From: an uncultured Nitrospiraceae bacterium
Lineage (GTDB): Bacteria > Nitrospirota > Thermodesulfovibrionia > Thermodesulfovibrionales > Dissulfurispiraceae
Assembly: GCA_963705105.1 (NCBI GenBank)
Contig: CAVPIW010000008.1
Location: 48,585 to 112,584, forward strand
Reading direction: 5' to 3'
Length of the DNA stretch: 64,000 nucleotides
Below, one piece after another: positions 25,504 to 57,015 of this stretch; positions within the stretch are counted from its first letter, which is position 1; each line of letters begins with the position of its first letter. The position numbers and the translations under genes were made by a program. The notes under the pieces are model-generated. The model made no database searches, was not told where the DNA came from, and saw only the letters and a list, made by a program, of their open reading frames with translations.

Positions 25504-25718
25504 ACCTTCCAGTTGCATGAAGGGGCGGGGCGAAGCGCCTCAAAGCCTTGATGAAGGCGACGATGAGCATTGTCAGGTTCGTCCTTCAGGATTCCACTCT
25601 TTGTGTGATCGATCAGTGGTTTAAAAGGTCGTCTTTCGTTGCGATTATGGTGTCGCCGCATCAAGGTTTTCCGCGCATACACCCCGCCCCTTCAGTCCGG
25701 CGTATGCAACATTAAGGA
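25504..25718 (+). repeat. Rod-like interspersed repeat, short subtype
   Basis: ACCTTCCAGTTGCA...TGCAACATTAAGG; colinear with 29373-29585. Confidence 0.92.
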
Positions 25719-25760
25719 TTATATAGGAGATCACAATACTCGTGCTGACATTATTTTTCC

Positions 25761-25789
25761 TTGACACCGACTTCTTTATCGGTTATATA
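25761..25789 (+). promoter_or_regulatory. Putative sigma70 promoter
   Basis: TTGACA-17-TATATA. Confidence 0.55.
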
Positions 25790-26017
25790 TGAGATAAAGA
25801 ATTGGGAGATGCTGAAACACCGTGTCGCGAAGGGACGATTGGTGGTCGGCATTCACGGCGCTGATAGTGAAAAAAAGGGGGTAGGATACAAAAGATGAAA
25901 AATTGGGAGCAGGTCGAACCTCGTTAGGGAAATGGCCTCGAGGTGGGGGCGGGTCCCACCCGGGAGAGGGTTCTCCTGTGCATTGATTTCGAACTCTGTG
26001 CCACGAAGGAGGGCGGT

Positions 26018-26606
26018 ATGATGAGATCCTTATTGGTCGGTCTGGCAGTCGCAGTTCTTGTCGTGACCATGTGTTTCGGGGCCGCCGATGCCCAGATATC
26101 CTTCAGTCAAGGTTATGTGAACACCATCGGCAACGACGTCTTCCTGACCATACCCGAGATCAGTAGCGGAACCGTCCAGGGGTGGGTGACCTGGAAATTG
26201 AACTTCGGCACCATATCATGGGACCTGGAGGATTTTGGCCTCACCGCTGATGTGCCGAAACTGGGATCGCGGACGGCAAACGGAAGGTACCTGTACCATG
26301 CTCAGAAGAGTATCGTAGTGATCGACATTGAGTTCTCCGATTTTCTCGGGTGCGGCATCGACAGGGGGATCGAGGTGCTCGACGTCTCGGGCATTACCGA
26401 CACTGCACTGAACTTCACTATCGTCGAGCCGTTGGAGGCCGGGGATCCGCTTTCGATCTTCTGCACGAGGGCCGGACGGTGCCGCGGGCGACATCGTGGG
26501 GGTCTGGTCGTGTGACCTCGGCGATGTGGGCTCATTGACTCTGAACATGAAACAGGACAGGACTGTCACCATTACGGGGGTCATGCAGAACTGCCTGCTC
26601 GACTGA
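26018..26606 (+). pseudogene. Secreted hypothetical protein with +1 frameshift at 26477
   Basis: SD AAGGAGG, signal peptide; extra C relative to the paralog (GGACGGT vs GGAGGT); corrected frame ends NCLLD*. Confidence 0.75.
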
Positions 26607-26926
26607 CCTCACGGCGGAGCGTCTCAACTCTTTCCGGGGCATCCCAGCCCCGGAAGGCTTTTATATCGACACGTTCTCTTTTTATGTCGACAACGTCTAT
26701 ACATCACTGCGATACAGAGTCGGCAAATCCTGACGCCCTTATACTTCTTTATCTCCAGCAAATCATCATCTCCCGTCACCAGATACGCAGCTTTTGCAGG
26801 CAGTGCACAGGCGATAACGCTGTCGTCATCGGCGTCGCGGCCATGGCGTTCCTTGATTACCGGAACGGCCTGATCGGTTAGGCGCTTGCATTTGCAAGGG
26901 AATTAAATATAATGAAAGGAAAAGTC

Positions 26927-27037
26927 ATGAGAGAAACACCGGTGATCTTGGACCCCGAACCGGGCATTTATTGCCGGTGGAGCTGTGGAAAGCCAGGCAA
27001 TTTGCCGTTCTGTGATGGCGCTCATAAAAACCCCTGA
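26927..27037 (+). pseudogene. Degenerate CDGSH iron-sulfur domain small ORF (36 aa)
   Basis: Translates MRETPVILDPEPGIYCRWSCGKPGNLPFCDGAHKNP; PFCDGAH signature present, canonical first Cys and Ser altered. Confidence 0.6.
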
Positions 27038-27150
27038 CAAAGAGGAACGCGAGCGAAGGCGCATCGAAGTAGCCTCAAAAAGTAGTGTGCACCGGATCGC
27101 CGGCGTCATTGGGGTATCCGGGGCACAATCCTTCTCACAGGAGGTGTGCT

Positions 27151-29124
27151 ATGACTGAGGGAATTACCAGACGGACCTTTCTGGGCGCCGGAGCCGCCGG
27201 GATGCTCTCCCTTTGTGGCTGCAAAACTCTGAACAGACCGACGCAACGGACAGACATGCCGGCTGACATTATCCTTTTTAACGGCAAGATCACCACCCTC
27301 GATGGTGCCAAACCTCAGGTCTCGGCCGTTGCCATGGCCGGAGGACTCATAACCGCCACCGGGGGCGAAGAACTCCTCGCTGCCGCAACCGGCAAGACCA
27401 GGAGGATCGACCTCAAGGGGAGGCGGGTCATCCCCGGCCTGAACGATTCGCATACCCACGTCATCCGCGGCGGTCTCAGTTACAATCTGGAGCTTCGCTG
27501 GGACGGGGTTCCCTCTCTCGCCGACGGTTTGCGCATGCTGAAAGAGCAGGCACAACGAACTCCTCCCGGCCAATGGGTTCGGGTCATCGGCGGCTGGAGC
27601 GAATTTCAGTTCGCTGAGCGGCGCATGCCCACGCTCGAGGAGATCAACGCCGTCTCTCCCGATACGCCGGTCTTCGTCCTGCACCTGTATTGCCGCGGAA
27701 TGTTGAACAAGGCCGCTCTGCGGGCCTGCGGCTACACGAAAGACACGCCGGACCCGCCCGCCGGTGAAATCCAGCGCGACGCAAGCGGCAACCCCACCGG
27801 GCTTCTCATCGCCCGTCCCAATGCCGGCATTCTTTACGCCACCGTCGGCAAGCAACCGAAACTGCCGCCCGAACATCAGATGAACTCTTCGCGTCACTTC
27901 ATGCGCGAGTTGAATCGCCTCGGCCTCACCAGCCTGGTGGACGCCGGCGGCGGATCGCAAATCTATCCGGATGACTATGCGATCATCGAGGAGCTTCACA
28001 AGCGGGGTGAAATGACCGTGCGCATGGCCTACAACATTTTCACGCAAAAGCCCAAAGAGGAAAAAGAGGATTTCCTGCGTACCATGAAGCTGACCGCGCC
28101 CGGCAAAGGTGACGATTTCTACCGCTGCAACGGTGCCGGAGAAATGCTGGTTTACTCGGCAGCGGACTTCGAGGATTTCATGGAACCCCGGCCCGATCTC
28201 CCGTCCGACCTGGAGCGGGATCTGAAAGAGGTCGTTTCGCTGCTAGCCGCCAATAAATGGCCGTTCCGCATTCACGCAACCTATGACGAAAGCATCTCCC
28301 GCATGCTGAACGTGTTCGAAGAGGTGAACCGCGAAATCCCCTTCAAAGACTTACAATGGATCTTCGATCATTGTGAAACCATCTCCGACCGCAGCCTCGA
28401 ACGTGTCAAAGCTTTGGGAGGCGGCATTGCCATCCAGGACCGCATGGCCTTCCAGGGGGAGTATTTCCTGGACCGGTACGGGAAGCAGGCAGCGGAGCGG
28501 ACGCCGCCGGTTCGAAAAATGCTCGATCTTGGCATTCCCGTGGGGGCGGGCACCGATGCAACCCGCGTGGCCAGCTATAACCCCTGGCTTTCCCTGTATT
28601 GGCTGGTTGCCGGGAAGACACTGGGCGGCGCCTCGTTGTATTCCAGAGCAAACCGCCTCAGCCGGGAGGAAGCATTGAAGCTCTATACCCAGGGCAGCAG
28701 TTGGTTCTCCGGTGAAAGCGGCAGGAAAGGGGCAATCTCCGTCGGCCAATTGGCGGATGTCACCGCGCTCACTGAAGATTACTTTTCGGTGCCGGAAGAG
28801 AAGATCAAGGGGATCGAGTCGGTCCTTACCATTGTCAACGGGAAGATTGTATACGGCGCTCAGGAATTTCATAACCTTGACCCGGCTCCCCTGCCGGTTC
28901 TGCCGGAATGGTCGCCCGTAAAGGTTTATGGCGGGTACGGGGCGCCGCTGGATGTTCGCAAAGCCGCCCGCGCCGGTGTCCCGGTCCCCCTGCACCAGCA
29001 TTCTGCTGAGTGCCGCTCGCACGGCTGTCTCCATGCCGCCCGGCAACTCCTGGTCGGCATCAAGGCTGCTGCTCCCCGTTACGGTGATTTCTGGGGCCTG
29101 GGTTGCGACTGTTTTGCGTTCTGA
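27151..29124 (+). CDS. Amidohydrolase family 3 (YtcJ-like) with Tat signal
   Basis: TRRTFL twin-arginine motif; PGLNDSHTH, RIHATYDE, DHCE, GTDAT; SD AGGAGG. Confidence 0.9.
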   Translation: MTEGITRRTFLGAGAAGMLSLCGCKTLNRPTQRTDMPADIILFNGKITTLDGAKPQVSAVAMAGGLITATGGEELLAAATGKTRRIDLKGRRVIPGLNDSHTHVIRGGLSYNLELRWDGVPSLADGLRMLKEQAQRTPPGQWVRVIGGWSEFQFAERRMPTLEEINAVSPDTPVFVLHLYCRGMLNKAALRACGYTKDTPDPPAGEIQRDASGNPTGLLIARPNAGILYATVGKQPKLPPEHQMNSSRHFMRELNRLGLTSLVDAGGGSQIYPDDYAIIEELHKRGEMTVRMAYNIFTQKPKEEKEDFLRTMKLTAPGKGDDFYRCNGAGEMLVYSAADFEDFMEPRPDLPSDLERDLKEVVSLLAANKWPFRIHATYDESISRMLNVFEEVNREIPFKDLQWIFDHCETISDRSLERVKALGGGIAIQDRMAFQGEYFLDRYGKQAAERTPPVRKMLDLGIPVGAGTDATRVASYNPWLSLYWLVAGKTLGGASLYSRANRLSREEALKLYTQGSSWFSGESGRKGAISVGQLADVTALTEDYFSVPEEKIKGIESVLTIVNGKIVYGAQEFHNLDPAPLPVLPEWSPVKVYGGYGAPLDVRKAARAGVPVPLHQHSAECRSHGCLHAARQLLVGIKAAAPRYGDFWGLGCDCFAF

Positions 29125-29372
29125 ACATTACTTGACAAGAAACTCCAGTGCGGGTTAGATGAAACGAAAGTTTGTCGCATGGTAGGGAAGCGTCAATTAA
29201 CTCCGGCGCAAGGTCGATGCAGCGGCCGGTCTTCTCGGCAGGACATGCATCGTCGAAACAATTGAACCTCGTTTGCTACCGTACGTACCGCTTCAACTTT
29301 AGGGAAACGGCAAAGAAAACCGGCCTGATGGTGAGGCCGGAGTCGCTTCCGTGAGCATTTACTGTATACTAA

Positions 29373-29585
29373 ACCTTGCAGTTGCATAGAAAGGCGTGGC
29401 GAAGCGCCTCAAAGCCTTGCTGAAGGCGACGATACGCCTCGTCAGCTTCGTGTTTCAGGATTCCACTCTTTGTGTCATCGACCATTGGCTTATAGGTCAT
29501 CTCTCGTTTGATATAGGTGTCGCCGCAGCAAGGTTTTCGGCGCATACACCCCGCCTTTCCCGGGAGTGTATTGCAACGATAAGGT
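29373..29585 (+). repeat. Rod-like interspersed repeat, short subtype (213 bp reference copy)
   Basis: ACCTTGCAGTTGCA...TGCAACGATAAGGT with long imperfect inverted arms. Confidence 0.93.
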
Positions 29586-29633
29586 AAAGATGATTGCCTG
29601 AAATATGGATGTCTTTTTTCTCTGCCGAGCATT

Positions 29634-30116
29634 ATGAACCGGAATAAGATATGCTCTGATTGTGGTGTCGAGTACCTCCCGCACGTCGAAAAGTGCGCCG
29701 ACTGCGGCGCCGTCCTCATGCTGCACGAGGAGTACGAGAAAGCACAGGGGGAAAAAGAACGGCTCAGGGGGCAGGCCGTCGACAGCGCGGTCGCTGTCAG
29801 GGAGGGCGATCTCAGTTGGATGAGTGAACTGCGCTCCGTGCTTGTCGACTCCGGCATTCCCTGCACCGTCCGCACGGAGTCAGTCTGCAGGAAGGGCTGC
29901 CGCGACAAATACTATTTATTCGTATCCCGCGATGACGTGGAACGGGCGCAGCAGCGCATCGAAGAATACTTCGCGGAATTGCATCCCGAGATCCGCGCTT
30001 CTCAGGATCTGCTCGGCGAGGGCAAATGCCCGGCCTGCGGATCCCCCGTCGGCGATAAAGACCGCGCCTGCCCCGATTGCGGCCTGATGCTCGTCATTGA
30101 GGAAGAAGAGGGGTAG
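29634..30116 (+). CDS. Zinc-ribbon / DUF2007-like protein
   Basis: CSDC..CADC, central L.SVL.DSGIPC, C-terminal CPAC..CPDC. Confidence 0.8.
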   Translation: MNRNKICSDCGVEYLPHVEKCADCGAVLMLHEEYEKAQGEKERLRGQAVDSAVAVREGDLSWMSELRSVLVDSGIPCTVRTESVCRKGCRDKYYLFVSRDDVERAQQRIEEYFAELHPEIRASQDLLGEGKCPACGSPVGDKDRACPDCGLMLVIEEEEG

Positions 30117-30549
30117 AAGGACAAAGTCGAATAGAACAGGGCAGTTAGGTGACCTGAAAACCCGAATCCAGACAGCTTGCCTTTTTCACCGCCCCGCTGC
30201 TTATTCAGCGCTTCTCCGACCTCCCGATCGCTCAACTCAGCATCGATAAGACGCCGCCGCCCCTTTTCCATGACGAAACGGGCAAACGGCGTATCTGCAA
30301 TAAACAAGACCTGACCCCCTTATTACCTTTTATTACTTATTAGCTGCGCGAAATAACTCAGTTCAGCGTGAGCGCTCTCACGAGATGGACTCTCTTGTAT
30401 CACAATGAAATAACTACATAATATCAGGCTCACCCTCACATCCCGGGATTTCCGTGTATGTCTGACGATACAAACGCCATTCCAGGGTACGACGAAACCA
30501 AGAGAAATAATGATTGCATATCAGTCTGTTAGAGAAGCCATGGCATTCA

Positions 30550-30565
30550 TGGTATCGTTCTTGCT
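30550..30565 (+). promoter_or_regulatory. Putative sigma54 (-24/-12) promoter
   Basis: TGGTATCGTTCTTGCT: GG-N10-GC with TTGC. Confidence 0.65.
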
Positions 30566-30775
30566 TGCTCAATAGTTCACAAAACGCGTCTTTAAAGAAA
30601 CTGCCGAGCGGTCCACAATTCATGTATGCCAAAGGAGGAGGTGACGGGGTTTGTGGCAGTGGAACCTGGAACGGAGGAAGGTTGCATGTCTCACAGACCT
30701 TTTGGGAGATCTGACAGTTTCCCCAAGGGTGCTGGATGAAGTTATCTTTGAAAGGAGGTGAGTTCGTCCGGACCT

Positions 30776-30799
30776 GTATTGACAGAGGCGTGTCAATAC
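30776..30799. promoter_or_regulatory. Perfect inverted repeat (operator or RNA hairpin)
   Basis: GTATTGACA-N6-TGTCAATAC, 51 nt upstream of the start. Confidence 0.45.
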
Positions 30800-30850
30800 G
30801 ATGTCGCTGAAAAAGCGATCGAAAAAGTTGCAGAAAAAAAGGGAGGTAAT

Positions 30851-33127
30851 GTGACAAAGAAAGCAATACTGACACTATTAGCGGTTTTTGCGGTGACTGT
30901 TCTCGTCGCCTGGGTACCTGTGGCTGAGTCCGTATCGGGCTATTATACGAGCCAGGGCTGCACGGACTGCCACGCGGCCACACCCACCACATGCAAGGGA
31001 TGCCACGCCCACGGGACGCATTCAAGCGTCGCAGGAAACGGCATAAACATCACCGGAACAACGAATACCACTTCATACAACCCCGGCCAAACCGTATCGG
31101 TGACGATTGCCGGAGGAGTGAACTCAGGATGGGTTCGCGCCATACTCTATAATCAGAACATGGTGGAGCTTGCAAGGAGCACCGGTACGGCGACCGGCGG
31201 CATGGGCGGCGGCGCAAGCACGCCCGTTACCTTAACCGCTCCTGCGCCGACTACTCCGGGTACCTACACATGGAATGTGGCCTGGTACGGCAACTCATAT
31301 GACGGCGGTACTCCTTCATACGGACCGCGCTGGACTCCTGACCCGAACAATCCGGATCACGGACAGGAAATCGTTGCGACCAATTCCTTTACCGTCGTCG
31401 CAGTGGCGCCGGCCCCAGCGCCCGAAATCAACCCGAATCCGGCATCGCTGAACTTCGGCACGGTGAGCACCGGTGCTTCATCAACGCTGACCGCGCAGAT
31501 CCAGAACCTGGGCAACGCGACCCTGAACGTGACGGCCATCGCCCGCTGCGCGGGAACATCCGCAGAATACACATTCTCTCCGACGACGCCGTTCACCGTG
31601 CCCGCTAACGGCACCGCGACCCTCTCCGTCACGTACACGCCGACGGCTGCAGGGACCGATTCAGGCTGCATCCAGATCACGAACAACGACGCTAATGAGG
31701 GGACACTCCAGCTGAACGTATCGGGAACGGGCAACGTGCCGCCTCCGGCCGCAGTGCCTGACATCAACACGAACCCGGCGTCTCTCAGTTTCGGGACGGT
31801 CACCGTGGGGAGTCCGGCCACGCTTACGACACAGGTACAGAACCTCGGTAACGCAGGCCTCAACATCACGAGCATCGTCAGGTGTTCGGGCACGAGCACG
31901 GAGTTCACCGTCTCTCCTGCCGGACCTCTCACAGTAGCCGCAGCTGCAAATGCACCGGTGACGGTGACGTACACGCCGACCGGGGCAGGAACGGACAGCG
32001 GCTGCATCCAGATCAACAGCAATGATCCCGCCACGCCTGCGGTGCAGGTGACGGTTTCAGGGACAGGCAATGTGCCGGCGCCGCCGCCTGCGGCAGCGAT
32101 CAACCTGAACCCGACGTCGCTCAACTTCAATACGGTGACGGTCGGCAACAACGCGACGCTCACCGCAGCTATTCAGAACACGGGCAATGGCGCATTGAAC
32201 ATCACGGGCATAGCCCTCTGTTCAAACACCAGCACAGAGTACGCAGTGACTCCTGCGGCCCCGATCACCGTCGCAGCAGGGGCTAATGCTACGCTGTCGG
32301 TCCGCTATACGCCGACCGCGGCAGGCACCGATGCGGGATGCATCCAGATCACGAGCAATGCGACGGCTGCACCGGTCAGCCTGGCCTTGAGCGGCGCCGG
32401 CGTGAACCCGACTCCGCCGCCTCCCGCAGGATCTCCCGACATCAGCCTCGCACCGAACACGGTCGATTTCGGCTCGGTGACAGTCGGCGGCTCTGCGACG
32501 CAGACGGTACAGGTCCGGAACATCGGGACTGCCGACCTCGTAGTGAGTCGTATTTCCCTTTGCACCGGTACGACCTCTGAGTTGAGCTGGACAACACAGT
32601 CTCTCACTATCCTTGCCGGCAGCAGTGCGCCTTTCTCCGTGACGTACCGGCCTGCAGCCGCGGGAGCGGACACGGGTTGTATAGTGTTCGAGAGCAACGA
32701 CGCGGGCAACCCGACGGTGAGTCTCCAGGTGAGTGGCTCAGGCGTCGCCCCGGCCCCGCCCCCTGCCGGCTCGGTTGACCTCGACATCAGGAGATTTACG
32801 GCGACATCCTCCGTTGATCTCGCACAGGTGGGACCGGTTGAGATCAGGCTCTCGGTGGTCAATGCAGGAAGGGTCGCCGGACAGGCGCAAGCAACGGTGG
32901 TCGGTATGCAGAACGGGACGAGGGTCTACGAGCGGACCGTCACAGTATCTGACCCTGTCACAGAGGGAAGCACTTCCTTCAGGTTCCCGTCCTATGTGCC
33001 CACTGCTACCGGGAGGATCACATGGACCGCTACCATCGCCGATGGGAACTCAGACACCGACCGGATGAGCGTGACGACCCTCGTCGTCGACAACGCCGGT
33101 GATGAGCATGACGAGGAGGATGATTAG
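30851..33127 (+). CDS. Secreted diheme c-type cytochrome with four ASH/choice-of-anchor-D Ig-like repeats
   Basis: SD GGAGG plus GTG, signal peptide, CTDCH and CKGCH, four P.SL.FG.V..N.G..L repeats separated by Pro linkers. Confidence 0.85.
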   Translation: MTKKAILTLLAVFAVTVLVAWVPVAESVSGYYTSQGCTDCHAATPTTCKGCHAHGTHSSVAGNGINITGTTNTTSYNPGQTVSVTIAGGVNSGWVRAILYNQNMVELARSTGTATGGMGGGASTPVTLTAPAPTTPGTYTWNVAWYGNSYDGGTPSYGPRWTPDPNNPDHGQEIVATNSFTVVAVAPAPAPEINPNPASLNFGTVSTGASSTLTAQIQNLGNATLNVTAIARCAGTSAEYTFSPTTPFTVPANGTATLSVTYTPTAAGTDSGCIQITNNDANEGTLQLNVSGTGNVPPPAAVPDINTNPASLSFGTVTVGSPATLTTQVQNLGNAGLNITSIVRCSGTSTEFTVSPAGPLTVAAAANAPVTVTYTPTGAGTDSGCIQINSNDPATPAVQVTVSGTGNVPAPPPAAAINLNPTSLNFNTVTVGNNATLTAAIQNTGNGALNITGIALCSNTSTEYAVTPAAPITVAAGANATLSVRYTPTAAGTDAGCIQITSNATAAPVSLALSGAGVNPTPPPPAGSPDISLAPNTVDFGSVTVGGSATQTVQVRNIGTADLVVSRISLCTGTTSELSWTTQSLTILAGSSAPFSVTYRPAAAGADTGCIVFESNDAGNPTVSLQVSGSGVAPAPPPAGSVDLDIRRFTATSSVDLAQVGPVEIRLSVVNAGRVAGQAQATVVGMQNGTRVYERTVTVSDPVTEGSTSFRFPSYVPTATGRITWTATIADGNSDTDRMSVTTLVVDNAGDEHDEEDD

Positions 33128-33186
33128 TCGGAACGGGACTGAGCGGTTATCGCTCCGTCGGTCTTGCCCCTCGTTGCACAGTTTCG

Positions 33187-33210
33187 GGCGGGGGGCTTCG
33201 GCCCCCCGCC
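33187..33210 (+). terminator. GC-rich hairpin with UUCG loop
   Basis: GGCGGGGGGC-TTCG-GCCCCCCGCC. Confidence 0.65.
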
Positions 33211-33271
33211 GCTCACCGTGTCATGAGTAGCTGAGGCGGACATTTCAGAAAACAATTATGTTAAGCAGTCC

Positions 33272-33300: not shown

Positions 33301-33336
33301 ATTATATACATATCGCACATAGCGCTGCGACATCTG

Positions 33337-33365: not shown

Positions 33366-33436
33366 TGTTCGTGCCGGTGGAGCGGTTTTTCAAGCATGAC
33401 GAAATTATAACAATGTGCCTGAAAGTCGATTAATAA

Positions 33437-33472
33437 ACCTTTCAGTTGCATGAAAAGGCGGGCCGCAACGCT
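33437..33472 (+). repeat. Left-end fragment of rod-like repeat
   Basis: ACCTTTCAGTTGCATGAAAAGGCGGG. Confidence 0.7.
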
Positions 33473-33498
33473 GTCCGCGCTGACGAGGAGTTATTCTC

Positions 33499-43449: not shown

Positions 43450-43750
43450 ACAACCTCCTAATCGTCAAAACATAAGGGCCAGCTGACACATCCTTATACC
43501 ATCGATGTTTCACATAATCCAGGAAATTCTGCCTTTACTTTCGTCAACGACGGTCATCAGCACAATTGTCGGCTGTTTCATCTCGCTTCTTCCCTCATAT
43601 ATAACCGATAAAGGGATGGGTGTCAAGAGGAAAATAATGTTTCAGCTGTTCAATTACAGGGCCTGTGCCCGGAGTGTCGCGGGCAGTCAGAGGATCATGC
43701 GGTTGTGGGAATGACAACTTGTACGGTCCTGCGTATGAACAGCCAAGTAC

Positions 43751-43963
43751 CCCCTGTAGTTGCATGAAAAGGCGGGGCAAAGCGCCCCAAAGCCTCGCTG
43801 ATAGCGACATTGATCATTCTAAGTTCGTTGATCAGGATTCCATCCTCTGTGTCACCGACCGTCGGCCGGAAATAGTCTTTATGGGAAGGCAAAGGTTTCG
43901 CAGTACCGATGCTTTTCGGCGCCTTCGTCCCGCCTTTCCTGATGGCGTATGCAACGACAAGGT
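43751..43963 (+). repeat. Rod-like interspersed repeat, diverged short subtype
   Basis: 213 bp; GTTGCATGAAAAGGCGGGG...CCCGCCTTTCC..TGCAACGACAAGGT. Confidence 0.9.
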
Positions 43964-45095: not shown

Positions 45096-45309
45096 ACCTT
45101 TCTGTTGCATGAAAAGGCGGGACGAAGCGCCTCAAAGCCTTGCTGAAGGCGACGACACGCATTGTCAGCTTTGTGTTTCAGGAATCCAAACTTTGTGTCA
45201 TCGACCATCTGTTTATAATTCGTCTTTCCTTTCGATACAGGTGTCGCCGCAGCAAGGTTTTCGGCGCATTCACCCCGCCTTTTCGGATGTCTTATTGCAA
45301 CGACAAGGT
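45096..45309 (+). repeat. Rod-like interspersed repeat, short subtype
   Basis: ACCTTTCTGTTGCA...TGCAACGACAAGGT, 214 bp. Confidence 0.92.
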
Positions 45310-46523: not shown

Positions 46524-46608
46524 CTACTGACAGATTATCACATTGTGTGCATTTTGGCAACCTCTTATTCCCGTCAGGGCTCCCCCCCATGATACGTCCC
46601 GGGTTAAA

Positions 46609-48534
46609 CCGAAGTTCCGGTAGGGGGACAAGCTAACCTGTTGTTATTTTGATAGGAAACCATCGAGTTAGGTTTTCTGTACTGGCAACAAGCCCAGCAA
46701 CTGCATAGCTCTCTCCTGTAACGGGCTGTACTCTGTATGCTGAACGAATGTCAGTGCGTCGGGCTGCGATTGTACCCGGCATCGGTTACGGCACCGGGTT
46801 GCCAATTCCGCCAGAAGACTCTGAAAGCTGTGAATCGGAAGACCATCCTCTGTCGTCCGTCTCGTCTTCTTTTTCCGTGCCGACTCCGATGGCTGCGCGG
46901 GAGCCACAGGATCACGCGTGACGCGCAGCTCCTGCAGGTGCTCGTCATCAAACAGCAGCGGAGCGAGCGCCTCCCTCATGTGCCATTCCACATAATAGGC
47001 CAGCATGCACAGAAAGATGTGCGCCCGGACATGATCAGACGTGAAGTGCCGGATGGGCCGGACCAGCAGGTCAACCCCCTTGAGACAGCGGAATGCCCTC
47101 TCCACTTGTGACAGGCCCTTGTACTGCCGTACCGTATCAGCCGCCGACATCTCCTCCGCAGACTCACTGGTGCGGACCACGTAGATCCCGTCCAGCCGCA
47201 TCTCACGCTCGATGGACTCCTCATTCCTCCTGCACTGAAACAGTCCATCCTGGATCGTCAGAGCAAAATGCTTCCCGACCTTGTACCGGTTGATCACCTT
47301 GCCGACCTTCTGTCCAATCTCGCTTGCCGTCAGCGGATGCCTGCTCCTGCGCTGCACCTGCGCAGCGATCTTCTGGAGGTCCCTCTGCGCTGCCTCGATC
47401 AACTCCTGCCTCTTGCGACGACGCTCCTCCGCCAGCAGCGGATTGAAACACGCGATCAAACGCTCACCGGGGTACTCCGGCGAGGTGATCTCCGCAAGGT
47501 TCGTCCGATCAAAAAGCGACAACTGCAGATCCCCCGTGTCCACCAGATCCCGGATCGCCCGGCTCTTCAATGCTGAGATCCAGCCGATCCCCGGATACCC
47601 CTTCAGTACATCAATCCTCGCTTGGGTCAACATTCCCCGGTCCCCGACCAGAATAACCCGGGACAGCCCAAACCGTTGCCGCAGCTTCTGCACCTGATCC
47701 GCAACCGTCGAGGGGTCCCCCGTATCGCCCGGATACACATCGACGGCTACAGGCCTGCCCGCACGGTCCGTCAGAACCCCGTACACAATGATCGGCAAAC
47801 CCCTCTTGTCGTCTCGGTTGTATCCATAGCTGACCAAAGGACACGTGTGCCCCTCGTAATAACTGCTGCTGACGTCATACAGCACCACCGAACCCTCCGT
47901 AAGATGCCGCTTCGCCAGGTTCCTCTCTATGTCCGGCTGCCTCTGGATCAGCCAGTCCAAAGCCCCGTACAGTTCCTCGCTGTCCGCATCCCTCACCGAC
48001 ACCTCCTCGGCCAGCGTGCTGCTGTGCCACAGCCTCGTGGTGGCCAGCTTCGAACAGGGATGGATCAGCCGCTGCGCGATCATCGCCACAACCAGATCAC
48101 GCTGCCGTGAGCGCTCCGGCGCAATCATCGCGTCCAACCCCAGACGTGTGATCGTCCCCAGGATCGCCTCGACGTTGCCGTGCGGCAGGGACCGCTCGAT
48201 ATGAAACAGGTCTTTCGTGCTGATAAGCTCCTCGCCCCGCAGCAGGGCGCGGAGAGTTTCGACTTTCTGCATCGGCCAGTCGGAGATGTTGGCCACGGTG
48301 CGCTTTCTGATCTTCTTGCCCTCTCTCCATGCCTCACGGATGAGGATGGCGGGACGGGAGGTACGGTTCGGGACGATGTCGATGTACATGGTAACAATAA
48401 TAGCATAATGATCATCTATTGTCAAGCATAAAATATATATTACATGGGAACATAGGCAAAGCGCAAACGATCACATCCGCTTGCTCTTCAAGGATTATCC
48501 GGTCGACCTAACTTGTTTTTGGCTGGAACTTCGG
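46609..48534 (-). mobile_element. IS1634-family insertion sequence
   Basis: Terminal IR CCGAAGTTCC (46609) / GGAACTTCGG (48534); flanks GTTAAA/GCTAAA are an imperfect duplication. Confidence 0.88.
46668..48389 (-). CDS. IS1634 family DDE transposase
   Basis: LYDVSSSYYEG, GDRGM, YK.L..VERAFR.LK, VRAHIFLCMLAY; QLSLF clamp-type motif; TTGACA-17-TATTAT promoter 7 nt before ATG. Confidence 0.93.
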   Translation of the reverse strand: MYIDIVPNRTSRPAILIREAWREGKKIRKRTVANISDWPMQKVETLRALLRGEELISTKDLFHIERSLPHGNVEAILGTITRLGLDAMIAPERSRQRDLVVAMIAQRLIHPCSKLATTRLWHSSTLAEEVSVRDADSEELYGALDWLIQRQPDIERNLAKRHLTEGSVVLYDVSSSYYEGHTCPLVSYGYNRDDKRGLPIIVYGVLTDRAGRPVAVDVYPGDTGDPSTVADQVQKLRQRFGLSRVILVGDRGMLTQARIDVLKGYPGIGWISALKSRAIRDLVDTGDLQLSLFDRTNLAEITSPEYPGERLIACFNPLLAEERRRKRQELIEAAQRDLQKIAAQVQRRSRHPLTASEIGQKVGKVINRYKVGKHFALTIQDGLFQCRRNEESIEREMRLDGIYVVRTSESAEEMSAADTVRQYKGLSQVERAFRCLKGVDLLVRPIRHFTSDHVRAHIFLCMLAYYVEWHMREALAPLLFDDEHLQELRVTRDPVAPAQPSESARKKKTRRTTEDGLPIHSFQSLLAELATRCRNRCRVQSQPDALTFVQHTEYSPLQERAMQLLGLLPVQKT

Positions 48535-48688
48535 GCTAAAGGGCAAGTTTCAGCAGGATACCTGTCGCCCGGGACCTGAAGGGTTGTCGGAACGAGGTCG
48601 ACTATAGGCTAGTGCCGCCGCAGTGACGAGGCCGGAGAAAGGTTCTATACGGGACGTGTCCCTGTCCGATTATGAACAATCAGTTGTC

Positions 48689-50086: not shown

Positions 50087-50145
50087 AGCGCTGAACCCTC
50101 CCTGCGTCCCATGAGCACAGTTAGTTAAGCAAAATATGGTGTACC

Positions 50146-50382
50146 CTACCTGGCCACAAGTTCCTCATAGTGTTGTTGGAATTCCGCCCCGAAGCTCTTC
50201 GCCTCAACGCCGCCTTGCTCATACGCTTCTTTCGCAAGCACAATAGCCCGAAAAAGATCATCGGGCGAGAATGGTTCGCCAACTGCCTTTCTCAGTTCAC
50301 CTATTGCATTGACCAGACGAATGTGCACGTCTGGGTTCGCCAACAGCGCCTCATGCAGCTTCTTCACGCTCTCTGATGCCAT
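50146..50382 (-). CDS. Small protein, candidate Nif11-like RiPP precursor
   Basis: Strong SD AAAGGAGGT; 78 aa directly upstream of the radical SAM gene; GEPFSPDDL and EQGG motifs. Confidence 0.7.
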   Translation of the reverse strand: MASESVKKLHEALLANPDVHIRLVNAIGELRKAVGEPFSPDDLFRAIVLAKEAYEQGGVEAKSFGAEFQQHYEELVAR

Positions 50383-50603
50383 TTCGCACCTCCTTTGGGA
50401 AAAATGCTCATATTACGTATGGAGAGCCCGCACATCTGTGTTCTCCCCATGTCCCTTAAAACAATATGGTGCAGCGCCGGGAAATCCAATCTCGCCGCCC
50501 TGACATTGCGATATTATGAAGGGTCTCGTACAATATAGCAACTCAATCATCAACTTAGAGCCCGGACTTCTTTGTGTCTTTCTCTGTTCCCGGTCAGGCA
50601 CCG

Positions 50604-51782
50604 TTACTTGGTCATTATCTGGATGCTGAAGAGTATCTCATAGAACGGTGTGTCCGGCCTCTTTCTCACGACAGCCAGCGAAGTGAAGGAATCCGTTTCG
50701 GGTATCCTGACGCCGGCGAGCACATGGTGCGCACGCTCATGGACGGGATTGACCTGAATTGTTGCGGACTCTTTTCTCTCGCCCTGTGACGGCTTTTCTC
50801 CCGGCGGGTCCAGGACGAAGGAGAGTTTCTTTTCCTGCGTCGTCTCATGTGAAGCCTGAATGTTGTATATAACCGCTACCTCCACCCGATCAGACTGAGG
50901 ACAACAATGTGTAATATAGAGGTGGATATTTTGCTCCCCTTTCATGAGAACGACTTTGTCCCCCTGTCGCACCTCACCAAAGTCGAAGTACCCGGGTCGC
51001 GTTTCTATTGTCAGCCTCAGCGCGCCGACCCTGGGAGAGCAGCCGCCGAACAGGTTGTCACGATATCCCGTCAATTGAGCACTGTTGTTTGATGTCGTCT
51101 CCTCGGCCACCTCACTGGACGCCGCCACGGCGAAGTAGACTATGCAAACCGATTCAGGCCACTCGATCTCACGCCGACTGGGGACCAGTCGCATCTCCTC
51201 TCCCTGTTCGAGGGAAATAGACTTCTGGAAACTCTTGCCGAATGAAACGTGGGCTCCCTGGAGCCGATCGAGGGCGATGACGTTCAGGGTGACCGGTCCC
51301 TCGAACCGCGATCCCCTGTTCTTCAGAGTAAACCCGATCACGTCGAGGTATTTGCCCTCAAAGAGCCCAAGGGCCTTCAGATCCGTCACCACCAGATCGG
51401 GTTTGGCAGGCGCCTCAATAACACGTACCTGCACGACATCTCTCTCAGAGTAAAGCTTTCCGTCGCTGACCGTCAGCGCAACCACATATGTCCCTTTTTT
51501 CGATGCCAGGAATGTTGCTGTTTTGCCGAACCGGTTTTGAAGGACCTCTTTGCCTGCTCCTTCAGGCGCGGCGAGCAACTCCCAGAGAAAGGAGAGCGAA
51601 TGTCCCTCAGGGTCGAAGCTTCCCGACCCGTCAAGAAAGACCAATTCTCCCGGGAAGCACAGCTGGTCCATACCCCCTTTGGCGATTGGCGGTTTGTTTG
51701 GTCCCGGAACTTCAGCGGCCTGACAGGGGATAATGGACAAGAGCATGAGGATGAGGACGGCGGCAAACAATGTTTTTTTCAC
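50604..51782 (-). CDS. Secreted PKD/CARDB-like domain protein
   Basis: SD AAGGAGG plus GTG, signal peptide, N.PP.A..G.DQ..LDGSGSFDPEG..L.F.W, PDLVV..N.G..E....NN. Confidence 0.8.
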   Translation of the reverse strand: MKKTLFAAVLILMLLSIIPCQAAEVPGPNKPPIAKGGMDQLCFPGELVFLDGSGSFDPEGHSLSFLWELLAAPEGAGKEVLQNRFGKTATFLASKKGTYVVALTVSDGKLYSERDVVQVRVIEAPAKPDLVVTDLKALGLFEGKYLDVIGFTLKNRGSRFEGPVTLNVIALDRLQGAHVSFGKSFQKSISLEQGEEMRLVPSRREIEWPESVCIVYFAVAASSEVAEETTSNNSAQLTGYRDNLFGGCSPRVGALRLTIETRPGYFDFGEVRQGDKVVLMKGEQNIHLYITHCCPQSDRVEVAVIYNIQASHETTQEKKLSFVLDPPGEKPSQGERKESATIQVNPVHERAHHVLAGVRIPETDSFTSLAVVRKRPDTPFYEILFSIQIMTK

Positions 51783-52209
51783 GGATGCCTCCTTGCGGCG
51801 CAGTGGACAGTCATACAAATCGCGGACCCCAAAGGGTTCATTCTCCTATACAGCATCTCCATTCTTACCCCATGTATAACCGATAAGTAGGCGGGTGTCA
51901 ACAGGAAAATATTGTGTCGGGATCCAATGGTCTGGCGTTTGCACTATGTCGGTGGTGCCTAAAGGCGGTCAGCATTGAGATCGACGCATTGTTAGCGAAA
52001 GTCCTGAGGGAAGGGAGGAGACGGCGTAGGGGTAAAATGAAACCTTTAATCGGAAGGCTTCTTGTAAACGCACTTGCTGTACACATTCAAAAGGTGCACT
52101 TCCTCGTATGCAAATAAAACCTCATCAACGAGTGAAGCAACCAAGAATGATATTTTCCGAGGGAACGGCGTGGACGAGGTGAAAAGGACATTTAGGATTT
52201 ACGGGTTAT

Positions 52210-52980
52210 TCACTCCCCCACCTCCATCACATCCGACTCCTCATAGCGGCTTGCGATATGGATTGGAAGCTCGTTGCCGACTATGCTCCGATGGGTTTCG
52301 AGGGCGAGGGCAGGGTAGTTGTTCTCCGCCGAGAGGTGGGCGAGGCAGGCCCACCGGAGGCGGGAGCCGGCCACCCTGAGCAGCTCCGCCGACTCGGCGT
52401 TCGACAGGTGCCCCCGGGGGCCCCGGATGCGGTTCTTGAGGAACTCGGGGTACGAGCTGTGGCTGAGCATGTCCGGGTCGTAGTTGCTCTCGATGATGAC
52501 GGCGTCAAGGGTCGAGACGGCGTTCACGAGCCTCTCGCAGACATGGCCGAGGTCGGTCAGGATGCCGAGGCGGAGTCCTTCCGATGAAATGACGAAGGCT
52601 GCTCCCTCTTCACCGTCGTGGTTTGTCGGCACCGTCTCGACGGCGAGGCCGTCGAACTCGATGACGTCGCCGGGCAGAAAGTCACAGACCTTCTTCATCG
52701 CGCCGAGGCGATGTCTCATGACGGCGCAGGAGTGTGTTCCAGGCGACATAAAGACGGGCAGGCCGAACTTCCGGTGGAACACGCCGGCGTATCGGACGTG
52801 GTCCCCGTGGTCATGGGAGATGATGACGGCATCGACGTCCCTGATATTTCGCCCATGCCGGGCGAGCCTGCTTTCCGCCAGGGCCCCGCAGATGCCGGCA
52901 TCGAAGAGGAGGCGGACGCCCGATGCCTCGACATAGATGCAGTTACCGTTGCTGCCCGACTGAAGGGAGATGGCGATCAT
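52210..52980 (-). CDS. MBL-fold hydrolase (WalJ/YycJ-like)
   Basis: SGSNGN, SHDHGDH, TDLG, IESNYD, GHLSN, AHLS.ENN. Confidence 0.9.
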   Translation of the reverse strand: MIAISLQSGSNGNCIYVEASGVRLLFDAGICGALAESRLARHGRNIRDVDAVIISHDHGDHVRYAGVFHRKFGLPVFMSPGTHSCAVMRHRLGAMKKVCDFLPGDVIEFDGLAVETVPTNHDGEEGAAFVISSEGLRLGILTDLGHVCERLVNAVSTLDAVIIESNYDPDMLSHSSYPEFLKNRIRGPRGHLSNAESAELLRVAGSRLRWACLAHLSAENNYPALALETHRSIVGNELPIHIASRYEESDVMEVGE

Positions 52981-54848
52981 GGTCCGGCCGGCTCCTCGCA
53001 GGTGAGGAGTTCAGCCTCGAATTCCTTCGCCCGTGCATCGTGTTCGTCGGTGAGGTCGGCCAGCTCCCCGAAGAGGCGGTCTATCCGCTCTTTGGCCTCG
53101 TGAATGGACTTCGAAAGGCCTGCCAGCTCCTGCCAGTTGCCCTTTTCCGAGGCGATGACGAGCCGGTTCGTGTCCCGGTCCGTCTCCTTTTCGAGCCTTA
53201 CGATCTCCTCTTCCGCCGCTGCAATCCTCTCCTTCAGGGACCCGAGCGCTTTCGACCGCCGCGTGATGATGTCGGCGCGCATGCGGCGCAGGTCCTTCCT
53301 GGTCGCAGCCTTCCGGTCCCTCTCCGCCGGCAGTCCCTCGGCAGGCTTTGTCTCCTCCTGCTGCCACCCGATCCGGTTCAGAAAGTCCTCATAGGTCCCC
53401 TCGAAGACCCTGACCGTCCCGTCGTCGAAAACGACGAGCCGCGTGGCGACGGCCTTCAGGATCATCTCGCTGTGGGTGACGATGATGATGGCGCCGTCGA
53501 AGTCATCGAGGGCCTCCAGCAGGGCGTCCACGGATTCCATATCGAGGTGGTTCGTCGGCTCGTCGAGGAGGAGGAGATTGGAGGGCGTCGCGAGGAGTTT
53601 TCCGAGGGCCACCCTGCTCCGCTCTCCGCCGGACAGGAGCGAGATTTTCTTCAGGGCGTTGTCGCCGTCGAACATCATAATGCCGCAGACCGTCCTCACC
53701 TGGGTGCGGCTTCTCGACGGGTCCGCGGACTGCACCTCCTCTTCGACGGTCGCTCCGGGGTCGAGGAGGTCGATCTTGGTTTGGCTGAAGTGGCCCAGTT
53801 TCATGTGGGGATGGCGGCGGACCTCTCCCCGCACGGGCGGGAGTTCTCCGGCGAGGACATTGAGAAGGGTGGTTTTGCCTTTTCCGTTCATGCCGATGAT
53901 CCCGATCCTGTCACCCTTGGCGACGGTGAGATTGAGACCTTCGAAGAGGAGCGGGCCTGGGGGGGCGTACGTAAAGGCGACGTCCTCCGCGTCGAGGAGC
54001 CACTTGCCGGCAAAGGGGGCGCTCGTAAAGGAGAAGTCGAGGGTCCTGATCTGCGTGAGCTGGTCGAGCTTTTCCCGCTTGCCGAGGGCCTTGATTTTTG
54101 ACTGCACAGCCCTGGCCCTCGTCGCCTGGGCCCTGAAACGGTTGATGAACTGCTCCACCTCCTTCCGTCTCTTTTCGTCGTTCAGCCGCGTCTTCTCGTA
54201 GACCTCCTCTTCAAGGAGAATCTGATCGTAGTACTTCCCCGTCGGACCGGCGACCTTCCGGACCTTGCCGCGGTGGATGCCCATGGTGTGGGTGGTAACG
54301 CTGTCCATGAAGGAGCGGTCATGGGTGATGACGATGAGCTCGTTCCGCCAATACCGGAGAAACCGGGCGAGCCAGCGGATGGAGACGATGTCGAGGTAAT
54401 TTGTCGGCTCGTCCAGCAGCAGGAGGTTCGGCTCGGTGATGAGGAGCTTTGCAAGATTCAGCCGGACCTGATAGCCCGACGACAGGGCCCAGGGACTCCG
54501 CGGGAAGTCATCTTCGGAGAACCCGAGACCGAGGAGGATCGCCTTGACCCTGTATGATTCGTCCTTTCCGTCCTCCCCCGTGCCGAGATGGAGACAGCCC
54601 TCGCCGAGGACGGTTTCCTTTGTGAAATCGGTGTGCTGCGACAGGTGGCCGATACGATAGTCGTTCGGGATGCCGATGACGCCGTCGTCGGGCCGTTCCT
54701 CGCCGATGATCAGACGGAAGAGGGTTGTCTTGCCGGAGCCGTTCCTCCCGACGAGGCCGATCCGTTCACCGGGACTGACGGTGAAGGAAACGTCGTCGAA
54801 GATCACCTGCCTGCCGTAGGCCTTGCTGAGCCGGGAGGCCTGTATCAT
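52977..54848 (-). CDS. ABC-F family ATPase
   Basis: Two ABC domains (GRNGSGKT, GMNGKGKT, LDEPTN x2), no TM, C-terminal coiled coil; ATGA overlaps at both ends. Confidence 0.93.
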   Translation of the reverse strand: MIQASRLSKAYGRQVIFDDVSFTVSPGERIGLVGRNGSGKTTLFRLIIGEERPDDGVIGIPNDYRIGHLSQHTDFTKETVLGEGCLHLGTGEDGKDESYRVKAILLGLGFSEDDFPRSPWALSSGYQVRLNLAKLLITEPNLLLLDEPTNYLDIVSIRWLARFLRYWRNELIVITHDRSFMDSVTTHTMGIHRGKVRKVAGPTGKYYDQILLEEEVYEKTRLNDEKRRKEVEQFINRFRAQATRARAVQSKIKALGKREKLDQLTQIRTLDFSFTSAPFAGKWLLDAEDVAFTYAPPGPLLFEGLNLTVAKGDRIGIIGMNGKGKTTLLNVLAGELPPVRGEVRRHPHMKLGHFSQTKIDLLDPGATVEEEVQSADPSRSRTQVRTVCGIMMFDGDNALKKISLLSGGERSRVALGKLLATPSNLLLLDEPTNHLDMESVDALLEALDDFDGAIIIVTHSEMILKAVATRLVVFDDGTVRVFEGTYEDFLNRIGWQQEETKPAEGLPAERDRKAATRKDLRRMRADIITRRSKALGSLKERIAAAEEEIVRLEKETDRDTNRLVIASEKGNWQELAGLSKSIHEAKERIDRLFGELADLTDEHDARAKEFEAELLTCEEPAGP

Positions 54849-55657
54849 GCCCTCTGCACGAGTGTCATGGCGCCGGTAGGGCAGTGCCTCCGGCAGAGGC
54901 CGCAGCCGAAGCAACGGTCAGCCAGGACGACAGCTTTGAAAGAGCCCTGCTCCTGCACGGATTCAATGGCGCCGAACTGGCATTGGGGGGCGCAGAGGCC
55001 ACAGCCGTCACAGAGTTCAGCGTTCACGGCGGCCGCCTGCTCGGCCCTCGCCATGGTCTCGACGCCGATGCCCGCAAGGGTGCGCATGGCGAGGCAGTCT
55101 TCGAGGGAGCAGTTGCAGACGGCGCCGATGAAGGGCGTCATCATCGTCCAGATGGTGTGCACCGCGCCGTGGTCTTCAAGGCTGTCCATCTGGACAACGG
55201 CTTCCTCGGGGGCAAGGGACTCGAGTCCTTCATCGTGGGCCATGCCGAAATAGGCCATGTCTATGTCCTTGTACCACGGGTCGGGTCCGTAGCTGATCCC
55301 GTAGCAGCAGCGCTCCTCTTTCCCCTTCGTCGCCCAGCGGCAGGCGCAGGGCATCCTGACGACGGTCCGGGACTGAAGCACGAGGTCCCGTATCTCCTCG
55401 ATCGGCAGCACCTGACCGAAGTGCTCCGTTTTCGCGCGCTCGACCATCGCCTTCACGACCGGATCGGGGAGCCGGCCCTTGCGCCGGAAGATCGTTTCGA
55501 GGCGGCCGAGGGTCCTGAATCCCTCGTCGATGGTCGTCCTGAGGAAGCCTTCGATGTATTTCCTGCGCTTCAGGTCCGACAGGAGGTCCTGGGCGTAGTT
55601 CGCCGCGTTGCGGTACCAGACCTTACCGTCGCCGTGCTTGGTACAGAACTCACACAT
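54845..55657 (-). CDS. 4Fe-4S dicluster domain protein
   Basis: MCEFC.KHG N-terminus, CACR, CNC, two CxxCxxCxxxC motifs. Confidence 0.88.
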   Translation of the reverse strand: MCEFCTKHGDGKVWYRNAANYAQDLLSDLKRRKYIEGFLRTTIDEGFRTLGRLETIFRRKGRLPDPVVKAMVERAKTEHFGQVLPIEEIRDLVLQSRTVVRMPCACRWATKGKEERCCYGISYGPDPWYKDIDMAYFGMAHDEGLESLAPEEAVVQMDSLEDHGAVHTIWTMMTPFIGAVCNCSLEDCLAMRTLAGIGVETMARAEQAAAVNAELCDGCGLCAPQCQFGAIESVQEQGSFKAVVLADRCFGCGLCRRHCPTGAMTLVQRA

Positions 55658-55666
55658 CGTCCGGCC

Positions 55667-56719
55667 TCATGCGAAATAGCCTTTCAGCCGCGATGCGAGT
55701 TCTTCCGGCGTAATGATGATCACCTCGGACTGGAGCACCTTTTGGAGGAAGAAATCGTCGTTCCGGTAGTTTGGATAGACGTTTTGTCTGTTCATGATCT
55801 TCACGAGGCAACGGAACCCGTTTTCTCCGGACGATGCCCTCTCCGAAAAGAGGGTGAAGTTGAAGCTCAGGTGACCCAGTTCTTCAAAAAAGGCGAGGAC
55901 CTTTGAAATCCCCGACGCCAGGTCATGCAGGTCCTGCTCGGAGAGGCGCACGAGGTCGCCCTCCCGCTCATGGACGGCGATGATCTCGTTGCTGCCTGCC
56001 GGCGAGAAGGAAGCCATCCAGTGCCAGGCGCCCTCCTGTTGCACATACCGCTCCGCCCGGTCACGCTCGGCCCTGATGAGGTCGGCGTGATATGCCGTGC
56101 CGTTCCTCCCGTGCCAGGCGCGGCATGCCCCGGAAACCCTCGCCTGGTATGAAAGGGCGACGGGGGTGACGAGCATCTGCAGGTGAGGATGGACGAGGCT
56201 TGCGCCGGCGGGGAAAAGATAGTTCATGTTGATGTTGACGAAGACGGCCGACGGGTCCTTCTCGTAGACGGACCGGAGAAAACTCTGGGACGCCAGGAAA
56301 CTGTCAGAGATAATGTCGGGCGTGAATTCGGAGAGTTTGAGGAAATGGGTCGCGCACATGGAGATGACGGCATGATATGTGCCGAGGGGAAAGAGGTTCG
56401 AAAAGAGGACGGCGTCGCCGGACCGGATCTTGCCTTCGGGAATGAGGTCGAAAGAGAACGGAGAGGCGATCTTGTCGATCTTATCGCAGCAGAAGATGCA
56501 GGTCTTCGCCGATTCCCGGACGAGGGTCTCGACGAGTTGCGGGTCATTCTGACCGAAATAGGTCTTTGCCTTATCCCTGAAGAAGGGGTTGAACACGCTC
56601 GTGTCGCCGAGGAGGGGGTCTTTCCGGATCTCGATGGCGTGGGTGACCTCTTCGAAGTTCTTGAGAGGGTTGAGGAACTTTGCCTCGATAGGGATAATTT
56701 CAAAGGATATGTCGCTCAT
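55667..56719 (-). CDS. GalT-like HIT-superfamily nucleotidyltransferase
   Basis: EIR.DPL.G, CIFC, NLFP, N.NY..PAGASLVHPHLQ (HxHxQ). Confidence 0.82.
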   Translation of the reverse strand: MSDISFEIIPIEAKFLNPLKNFEEVTHAIEIRKDPLLGDTSVFNPFFRDKAKTYFGQNDPQLVETLVRESAKTCIFCCDKIDKIASPFSFDLIPEGKIRSGDAVLFSNLFPLGTYHAVISMCATHFLKLSEFTPDIISDSFLASQSFLRSVYEKDPSAVFVNINMNYLFPAGASLVHPHLQMLVTPVALSYQARVSGACRAWHGRNGTAYHADLIRAERDRAERYVQQEGAWHWMASFSPAGSNEIIAVHEREGDLVRLSEQDLHDLASGISKVLAFFEELGHLSFNFTLFSERASSGENGFRCLVKIMNRQNVYPNYRNDDFFLQKVLQSEVIIITPEELASRLKGYFA

Positions 56720-56802
56720 AAGTCTCTCCGCAGAAGAATTAACGCATTGGTGTCCATAATAACGTGACACGAGGACAGGGCATGATTTCTTCGCATAACA
56801 AA

Positions 56803-57015
56803 CCCTTATCACCGCAATGAGATCTCCCGAAAGACGGGGCGAATGCGCCGAAAAGCATCGGTGCTGCGAAACCTCTGCCTTCCCGTACAGACAATTGCAG
56901 CCAACGATCGATGACAGGTCGAATGAATTCCTGATACACCAATAATAAACAATCATGCTCGCTATCAGCGAGGCTTTGAGGCGTTTTGCCCCGTCTTTTC
57001 GCGCAAGGAAACCGT
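56803..57015 (-). repeat. Rod-like interspersed repeat, diverged short subtype
   Basis: 213 bp; reverse complement aligns with 43751-43963. Confidence 0.85.

Follow-up and report, generated by a model that had tools for sequence, protein, structure and literature searches.

What kind of element is a short repeat that recurs about once every 5 kb among the ordinary genes of a bacterium, how does it move, and does it matter that its two arms can pair with each other? The question is raised by a stretch of 64,000 nucleotides from an uncultured Nitrospiraceae bacterium (assembly GCA_963705105.1, contig CAVPIW010000008.1, positions 48,585 to 112,584), here called the window. An initial annotation, made from the letters of the sequence, had described a rod-shaped repeat with compensatory changes between its arms and without target-site duplications, and had suggested either a REPIN-like or attC-like folded substrate or a structured RNA, mobilised by an enzyme encoded elsewhere. 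The analysis presented here identifies the repeat as a MITE (miniature inverted-repeat transposable element) moved in trans, in which pairing between the arms is maintained at one short helix. For this account as a whole, in which the identification as a MITE carries most of the weight, we put the probability at roughly 80 per cent; the identification itself we hold with high confidence, and that the pairing is itself under selection is in our judgement an even call. The sharply localised pairing constraint is worth testing.

Copy number, ends and target duplication

A search profile built with nhmmer from four of the window's own copies found 12 matches in the window, made up of five full short copies, three long variants and fragments. 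The genome holding the MITE (G000; 4,226,846 bases in 19 contigs) gave 847 hits, equivalent to 779 non-overlapping matches: 367 of full length, 182 with the left part only, 145 with the right part only and 85 others. Together these non-overlapping matches cover 113,972 bp, or 2.70% of the genome, and they are dispersed among ordinary genes at a density of about one per 5 kb. Anchored copies have a modal length of 211-213 bp and the range runs from 188 to about 283 bp, so that the fixed length claimed for the repeat describes its mode and overstates its uniformity. Median pairwise divergence among copies is 34%, falling to 8.7% for the nearest neighbour, and the subfamilies are mosaic, with three kinds of left inner arm combined with two kinds of right inner arm. 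The repeat has no coding capacity for a transposase, as the open reading frames (ORFs) overlapping it are short and spurious only, which agrees with the earlier view that it carries no enzyme and is moved in trans.

Conserved end motifs allowed 192 of the 367 full copies to be anchored; the other 175, without a recognisable motif at one end, were excluded. The element is bounded by CC...GG, its ends CCTTnnnGTTGCA ... TGCAACnnnAAGG forming terminal inverted repeats, and the consensus of its surroundings is T(0.77) N N A(0.88) on the left and T(0.86) N N A(0.80) on the right. Identical 4-mers flank 109 of the 192 anchored copies (shuffled mean 11.5, maximum 22), and side-to-side agreement amounts to 151-158 of 192 at all four flank positions, compared with 44-58 at control positions. 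The 158 copies with non-palindromic 4-mers include 83 direct matches and 2 reverse-complement matches. Contrary to the initial annotation, which had found no target-site duplications, the repeat is thus flanked by a 4-bp direct duplication of the form TNNA. Copies in which this duplication is intact have a median score of 201 bits against the hidden Markov model, compared with 109-153 for the other copies; they score higher against the profile and are therefore younger. An ordinary MITE derived from a known insertion sequence (IS), the outcome that the annotation had set against its own reading, is matched in so far as duplications are present at young copies, and fails in that no parent IS with these ends was found.

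The mobility of the element is seen at the copy that serves as numbering reference, an intergenic copy of 211 bp at 29374-29584 on the plus strand, flanked by TAAA at 29370-29373 and again at 29585-29588, whose insertion is polymorphic in metagenomes. Logan contigs of four metagenome runs (X1-X4) were aligned to window positions 25000-30200, and one contig each in X1, X2 and X3, which come from three studies, joins position 29369 directly to 29585. The joint skips 215 letters, of which 4 fit on either side, and therefore corresponds to the 211-bp element plus one TAAA: an exact empty site. The flanks of the X1 contig show 0 differences from the window in 613 nt and 2 in 1464 nt. No such joint was seen in the X4 contigs, and no empty site of the copy at 25505 in those of the four runs, though contigs cannot show absence. 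Because it differs between near-identical strains, the MITE is still changing genomes in this lineage and can conveniently serve there to tell strains apart. A second strain indel lies close by at 29127-29301, directly past the stop of the gene at 27085-29124, where contigs of X1 and X2 skip 175 and 170 letters (joints 29126 to 29302 and 29131 to 29302, respectively); the skipped stretch is not a MITE copy.

Within the genome, 103 pairs of copies are less than 3% divergent, and one pair is 0% divergent in unrelated surroundings (flank identity 0.13 and 0.33). Of 390 genomes of the class, only two contain a 36-letter pattern from the arms when up to 3 mismatches are tolerated: G000, with 241 occurrences, and G004, with 19. 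The latter belongs to a different genus in the same family and carries a sister repeat family of the same architecture with TAAA flanks. Scanning the collection of species-genome contigs gave only three contigs, all of one G004-like metagenome-assembled genome (MAG) and with MITE copies only. The collection of metagenome contigs gave one, L072, again with a MITE copy only; it is the orthologous locus of C5:550044-551122 in G000, at 93.8% identity, where a MITE copy is present as well. The near-identical copies, together with a copy at the orthologous locus of a contig whose flank is diverged by about 6%, imply that the family is old and has recently been active. The G004-like genome (L069-L071) bears the public label of a Chloroflexota MAG, and a genome search places G004 in the family of G000; either the label or the placement may be off.

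The repeat is a MITE because of its copy number, its 4-bp direct duplication, its exact empty site and its near-identical copies at unrelated loci, and the family has every defining feature of a MITE except a known parent. Bacterial MITEs such as Correia, ERIC, Chunjie and Nezha, as listed in Table 1 of PMC3184786, resemble it in being non-coding, high-copy elements of 100-300 bp with terminal inverted repeats, and also in their short direct duplications that decay with age, their stem-loops and their insertion differences between close strains. The repeat differs from them in its 4-bp TNNA duplication in place of TA, in arm pairing over about 57 nt, in occupying 2.7% of the genome, in its mosaic, exchangeable inner arms and in having no parent IS that could be found. 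A description of this repeat family, or of MITEs in this lineage, was not found in the literature covered, which took in few subscription papers.

Pairing between the arms

The arms pair over about 57 nt each, with a 10-nt asymmetric bulge on the right arm, and enclose a weakly structured centre of about 85 nt. As DNA, the reference copy at 29374 folds with -37.5 kcal/mol (z -3.0), and as RNA its two strands give z values of -4.1 and -5.0; each fold is better than all 200 shuffles, and the arm pairing reported in the initial annotation thus holds for DNA and RNA alike. When 41 arm pairs are read across the 367 copies, 75% of the cells are Watson-Crick and the variation is mostly one-sided.

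Changes were placed by parsimony on a tree of the 367 copies. Same-branch changes in true partner columns number 105 where 36 are expected; cells that are not partners run at 1.64 times expectation. A Watson-Crick pair is replaced by another in 47 of these 105 cases, and partners shifted by 1-3 columns give 2-11. Helix H3 (AAAGGCG/CGCCTTT), whose core occupies 29390-29396 and 29552-29558 in the reference copy (element positions 17-23 and 179-185), holds 26 of the 47. Its double and single pair-breaking changes stand at 26:132 (26 and 106 in the core alone), against ratios of 0.01-0.03 in the other helices; H5 and H6, with 18 pairs the longest well-paired helices, have 5 double and 168 single pair-breaking changes. 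The co-change matrix of H3 shows a clean anti-diagonal, with 3, 5, 4, 4, 7 and 5 events at pairs 18-23 where 0.06-0.38 are expected, and the adjoining helix H4 contributes the co-changing pairs 32/169 and 33/168. At least 13 compensated pair types, transversion pairs included, are found in H3. Its core is of the consensus type in 219 of the 367 copies, a fully paired variant in 42, mismatched in 100 and gapped in 6. No mismatched variant of the core ever forms a clade of more than 5 copies; one compensated variant reaches 23.

Two of the window's copies illustrate these changes. The copy at 25505-25717 (plus strand, 213 bp, 238.3 bits with nhmmer), has ATTA on either side (25501-25504 and 25718-25721); its H3 is the compensated variant GAAGGGGCGGGG/CCCCGCCCCTTC, with double changes at 18/184 and 19/183 on its own terminal branch; its right junction is bridged by one contig of run X1. 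The copy at 56804-57014 (minus strand, 211 bp), with flanks TTCA and GTTT that do not match, has the compensated H3 pair AAAGACGGGG/CCCCGTCTTT and belongs to a divergent subfamily, the cluster of 23 copies; here the double change, at 21/181, falls on an internal branch with 23 descendants.

The structure also appears in an alignment of ten sequences from the two genera, in which 94.5% of the cells are paired against 36-51% when the pairing is slid, 8 of 31 pairs have changed on both sides, and the covariation score of 0.267 is reached by none of 500 shuffles; the structure tested was derived from that same alignment. The co-varying boxes of the initial annotation are thus present and hold in a count that takes the tree into account, confined to H3 and the neighbouring helix and not spread along the whole rod. 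Likewise, its proposal that pairing is maintained stands for one helix, where the signal goes beyond shared ancestry.

We propose that a transposase encoded elsewhere, which we infer to be of the DDE type, makes a 4-nt staggered cut at TNNA sites and inserts the element there. The arm pairing is for the most part a by-product of long inverted ends, and most copies decay by one-sided changes. The exception is the 7-bp subterminal helix H3, whose strands lie 17-23 nt from the tip on the left and 27-33 nt from it on the right; the next helix joins it to a lesser extent. A protein that reads sequence at each end would not favour matched changes in the two arms, which leaves two readings: pairing that is needed, or copying from arm to arm. 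The former is favoured because the double changes are concentrated in H3 and not in the longer H5 and H6; the odds are about even that the arms must pair at H3 for a copy to propagate, for example in a hairpin of single-stranded DNA that might unite the ends or present a duplex binding site.

It is conceivable, though we think it rather unlikely, that the transposase or a host factor reads the folded hairpin, in single-stranded DNA or as a cruciform, by its shape, and that propagation depends on H3 pairing for that reason. If this were true, an element that integrates by a staggered 4-bp cut would nevertheless include a step that depends on structure, and the line between transposons with double-stranded terminal inverted repeats and hairpin substrates such as IS200/IS605 ends and attC sites would be blurred. 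The localised covariation at least poses a testable question, namely whether the ends of a cut-and-paste-type element must base-pair, and the hundreds of natural variants are a ready-made mutational series.

A number of observations weigh against our account. As to the enzyme, no transposase bounded by MITE ends was found in G000, which is 99.4% complete. Pairs of arms lying 0.6-6 kb apart in this genome enclose host genes (read from sequence as a DEAD-box helicase and nitrogenase-like, radical SAM, methyltransferase and Glu-tRNA synthetase-like genes). Matching ends are absent from its resident IS256, IS3, ISL3, IS481, IS4, IS1634, IS1182, IS630 and IS110 elements, and an IS1380 transposase above the family cut-off is absent from it altogether. 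As to the ends, the element varies most in its outermost 16 nt, which is where one would look for a transposase to act. Nor is pairing needed in general: the eight largest subfamilies comprise 343 copies (24 full copies in smaller clusters were left out), of which 133, in 4 of these subfamilies, have a GTGTCA-rich left inner arm that cannot pair, and single pair-breaking changes (1,060) far outnumber double compensations (47). The term rod-shaped, apt for some 57 nt of each arm, is therefore too strong for an element with such arms and a loose centre. As to selection on the pairing, the columns under test had also served to build the tree. The duplication is identical in 5 of 11 copies with a compensated H3, compared with 75 of 128 copies with the consensus. 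Finally, of the 47 double changes, 41 fall on terminal branches, each in a single copy, and could have arisen by a mutational process inside resident copies and not by selection on active ones.

The last of these points is shared by the strongest rival explanation, which accepts the MITE and takes the matching changes of its arms to be mutational: one arm's change would be copied to the other, either through template switching while the quasi-palindrome is replicated or through conversion of one inverted arm by its partner. Several copies have changed two pairs at once (18/184 with 19/183, 21/181 with 22/180, 22/180 with 23/179), and for such adjacent changes one conversion tract is cheaper than four separate mutations; moreover, G:T and A:C mismatches are equally common, which indicates no functional strand. 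However, this explanation would need its own reason for the preference for H3 over H5 and H6, the conserved mismatches and the asymmetric bulge persist in all subfamilies, and the identical runs shared by the arms are short (about 12 nt or less), a poor substrate for conversion. We regard it as the less probable reading of the double changes, with a chance that is far from negligible.

Much less probable is that the copies are or contain a structured host RNA, acting for instance in mRNA stability or regulation, whose pairing is kept at the RNA level. The RNA folds on both strands and the covariation in H3 and H4 are compatible with it, as is the finding that, per column, changes are about 3 times rarer in the arms than in the centre. 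There is also a precedent in the Bacillus cereus group, the repeat bcr1 (Klevan et al. 2007, cited from PMC3184786), which is some 155 bp long and has direct repeats of 5 bp on its flanks. Its positions are not conserved between strains, and compensatory changes in it keep the double-stranded structure; according to the same source it is transcribed and its pairing is kept at the RNA level. Duplication-flanked repeats with compensatory changes have thus already been described, and our repeat is like bcr1 in both respects. It differs from bcr1, as described there, in showing neither an orientation bias nor an excess of G:U, and in covariation that is limited to one 7-bp helix and the helix next to it. 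Where the neighbouring genes are co-directional, 104 copies lie in their orientation and 104 in the opposite one (by a crude ORF call), and pair-breaking changes are not tilted towards G:T (280, against 316 of A:C); the absence of either bias indicates no single functional RNA strand. In Rfam 15 only tRNA was matched in the window and no family covers the repeat, the best matches of the copy at 25505 reaching 12.3 and 10.9 bits, below the gathering score and with E values no lower than 1. The reference copy has no promoter-like or terminator-like site inside it, and it is simply missing from near-identical strains. The structured-RNA reading of the initial annotation is thus disfavoured.

The other reading put forward there, in which an HUH (RAYT) enzyme or a tyrosine recombinase moves a folded single-stranded substrate of the REPIN or attC kind, is hardly credible. 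In its favour, the repeat is an inverted doublet that is abundant, forms hairpins and maintains pairing at one helix, and the genome encodes four Y1_Tnp (HUH) proteins; against it, the repeat is flanked by a direct 4-bp duplication of variable sequence, of which the empty site keeps one copy, and none of the four genes has the repeat within 400 bp or a high-copy repeat in its flanks.

The search for the mobilising enzyme

The 4-bp direct duplication and the exact empty sites point to a transposase that makes a staggered cut, and not to HUH/RAYT or integron recombination, neither of which is known to make such a target duplication. REPINs share with our repeat that they are abundant, intergenic, hairpin-forming inverted doublets, and they are moved in trans by a single-copy enzyme. 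They are not known to duplicate their target, and the repeat flanks their RAYT gene, whereas our repeat has a duplication and the Y1_Tnp genes of G000 have no flanking repeat. These genes are single-copy, encode proteins of 221-323 aa and lie at C5:264358-265311, C7:292476-293141, C5:339353-340258 and C6:957389-958360. Two of them have a GGGCTGACCCC-type motif upstream, and the same motif is found just outside the inverted repeats of IS1182 in several genomes. Integron attC sites stand at cassette boundaries next to an integron integrase, and are not known to have a target duplication; our copies, in contrast, are scattered among ordinary genes and have one (an integron integrase was not searched for).

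A parent element was sought in several further ways. Pairs of end motifs outside the known copies of G000 occur at chance level, inspection of its contig ends revealed no concealed parent, and no parent IS with MITE ends was found among the examined loci of G004 and of genomes of the family.

Individual candidates were also rejected. The single copy of IS1182 is flanked by TTGA on both sides, which looks like a 4-bp duplication of the TNNA type; because the same 16 or so nt beyond it (TCAAGGGCTGACCCC) adjoin IS1182 ends in other genomes, this TTGA lies inside the element or in a terminal hairpin, and the ends have only the core CTGTTGC in common with those of the MITE. An IS1634 element with a transposase of 558 aa, present in 5 copies, shares ACAGTTG..GAAAAG with the MITE ends, but has 5-bp duplications and six extra terminal bases. 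A different, intact IS of the IS1634 family is found in the window itself at 46605-48539, about 1.3 kb from the MITE copy at 45097-45308; its ORF (46668-48425, minus strand) encodes a 585-aa transposase scoring 310 bits to NF033559, its second copy is at G000:C6:620490-622424, and its ends (..CCGAAGTTCC..) are unlike those of the MITE. An IS110-type element has two copies on C5, both of which sit not in the MITE but in another short repeat, which contains TGTCATTCCGGC (..ATTCCGG.. at the junctions). In one case the distance to a MITE end is about 30 nt, and the MITE is thus not its target.

The IS1380 family resembles the MITE in the form of its ends. It is characterised by CC termini and a duplication of 4-5 bp; all 4 copies examined in G076 and G077 show the CC ends together with a direct duplication of 4 bp that is perfect (TTAG, CTAA, TTAG, CTAG), and the only DDE_Tnp_1-type transposase of G004 belongs to this family (NF033539). 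The elements of all three genomes share the CC ends with the MITE, and those of G076 and G077 also share the 4-bp duplication and an AT-centred site. As a parent, however, IS1380 was rejected: it is present in G004 and other relatives, yet its ends (CCCAGATAATTCATAAAT) do not resemble those of the MITE (CCTTGCAGTTGCAT), and its target is YTAR where that of the MITE is TNNA.

Other copies and neighbouring features of the window

All five full short copies begin within 1 nt of the positions first given for them. The two that have not yet been mentioned both lie on the plus strand: a copy of 211 bp at 43752-43962, which belongs to the subfamily with A'-type inner arms and is flanked by TACC and TACT (3 of 4 positions matching), and one of 212 bp at 45097-45308, flanked by TTGA and TTAA (again 3 of 4). 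The three long copies were likewise located. The one at 15149-15423 (minus strand, 275 bp, flanks GCTA and TATA) has a GTGTCA-rich segment, unpaired with the right arm, in place of its left inner arm; that at 10582-10863 (plus strand, 282 bp) is flanked by TTAA and TGAC; and that at 2849-3090 (minus strand, 242 bp, flanks TTAA and AAAA) is degraded. Fragments are also present, as left-arm pieces at 4845-4910 (plus) and 22694-22749 (minus) and a left end of 43 nt at 33429-33471 (plus).

Across the genome, full copies are more frequent on the minus strand than on the plus strand (211 and 156), with 54 against 25 in gaps between convergent genes, a skew that a draft assembly does not allow to be tied to the direction of replication. 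A tRNA gene (56 bits) at 10465-10544 ends 37 nt upstream of the long variant at 10582-10863. The short repeat with TGTCATTCCGGC adjoins several MITE copies (at about 15105-15140 and 10885-10900 in the window, and at L090 and L091 on G000:C5).

The copy at 25505-25717 is flanked by two stretches of about 330 bp (24577-24907 and 26325-26656) that lie 1.75 kb from each other and share 87-93% identity. Inside the long ORF at 30758-33127, positions 31628-32700 hold four tandem units of about 336 bp, 63-79% alike over 62 nt, which probably encode a repeated protein domain. Lastly, a promoter-like block (TTGACACC ... TATATA, with CCGATAAAG between) recurs at 43579-43643, 51854-51918 and about 25740-25790, upstream of different genes and in one case beside a MITE copy, and may be a common regulatory site.

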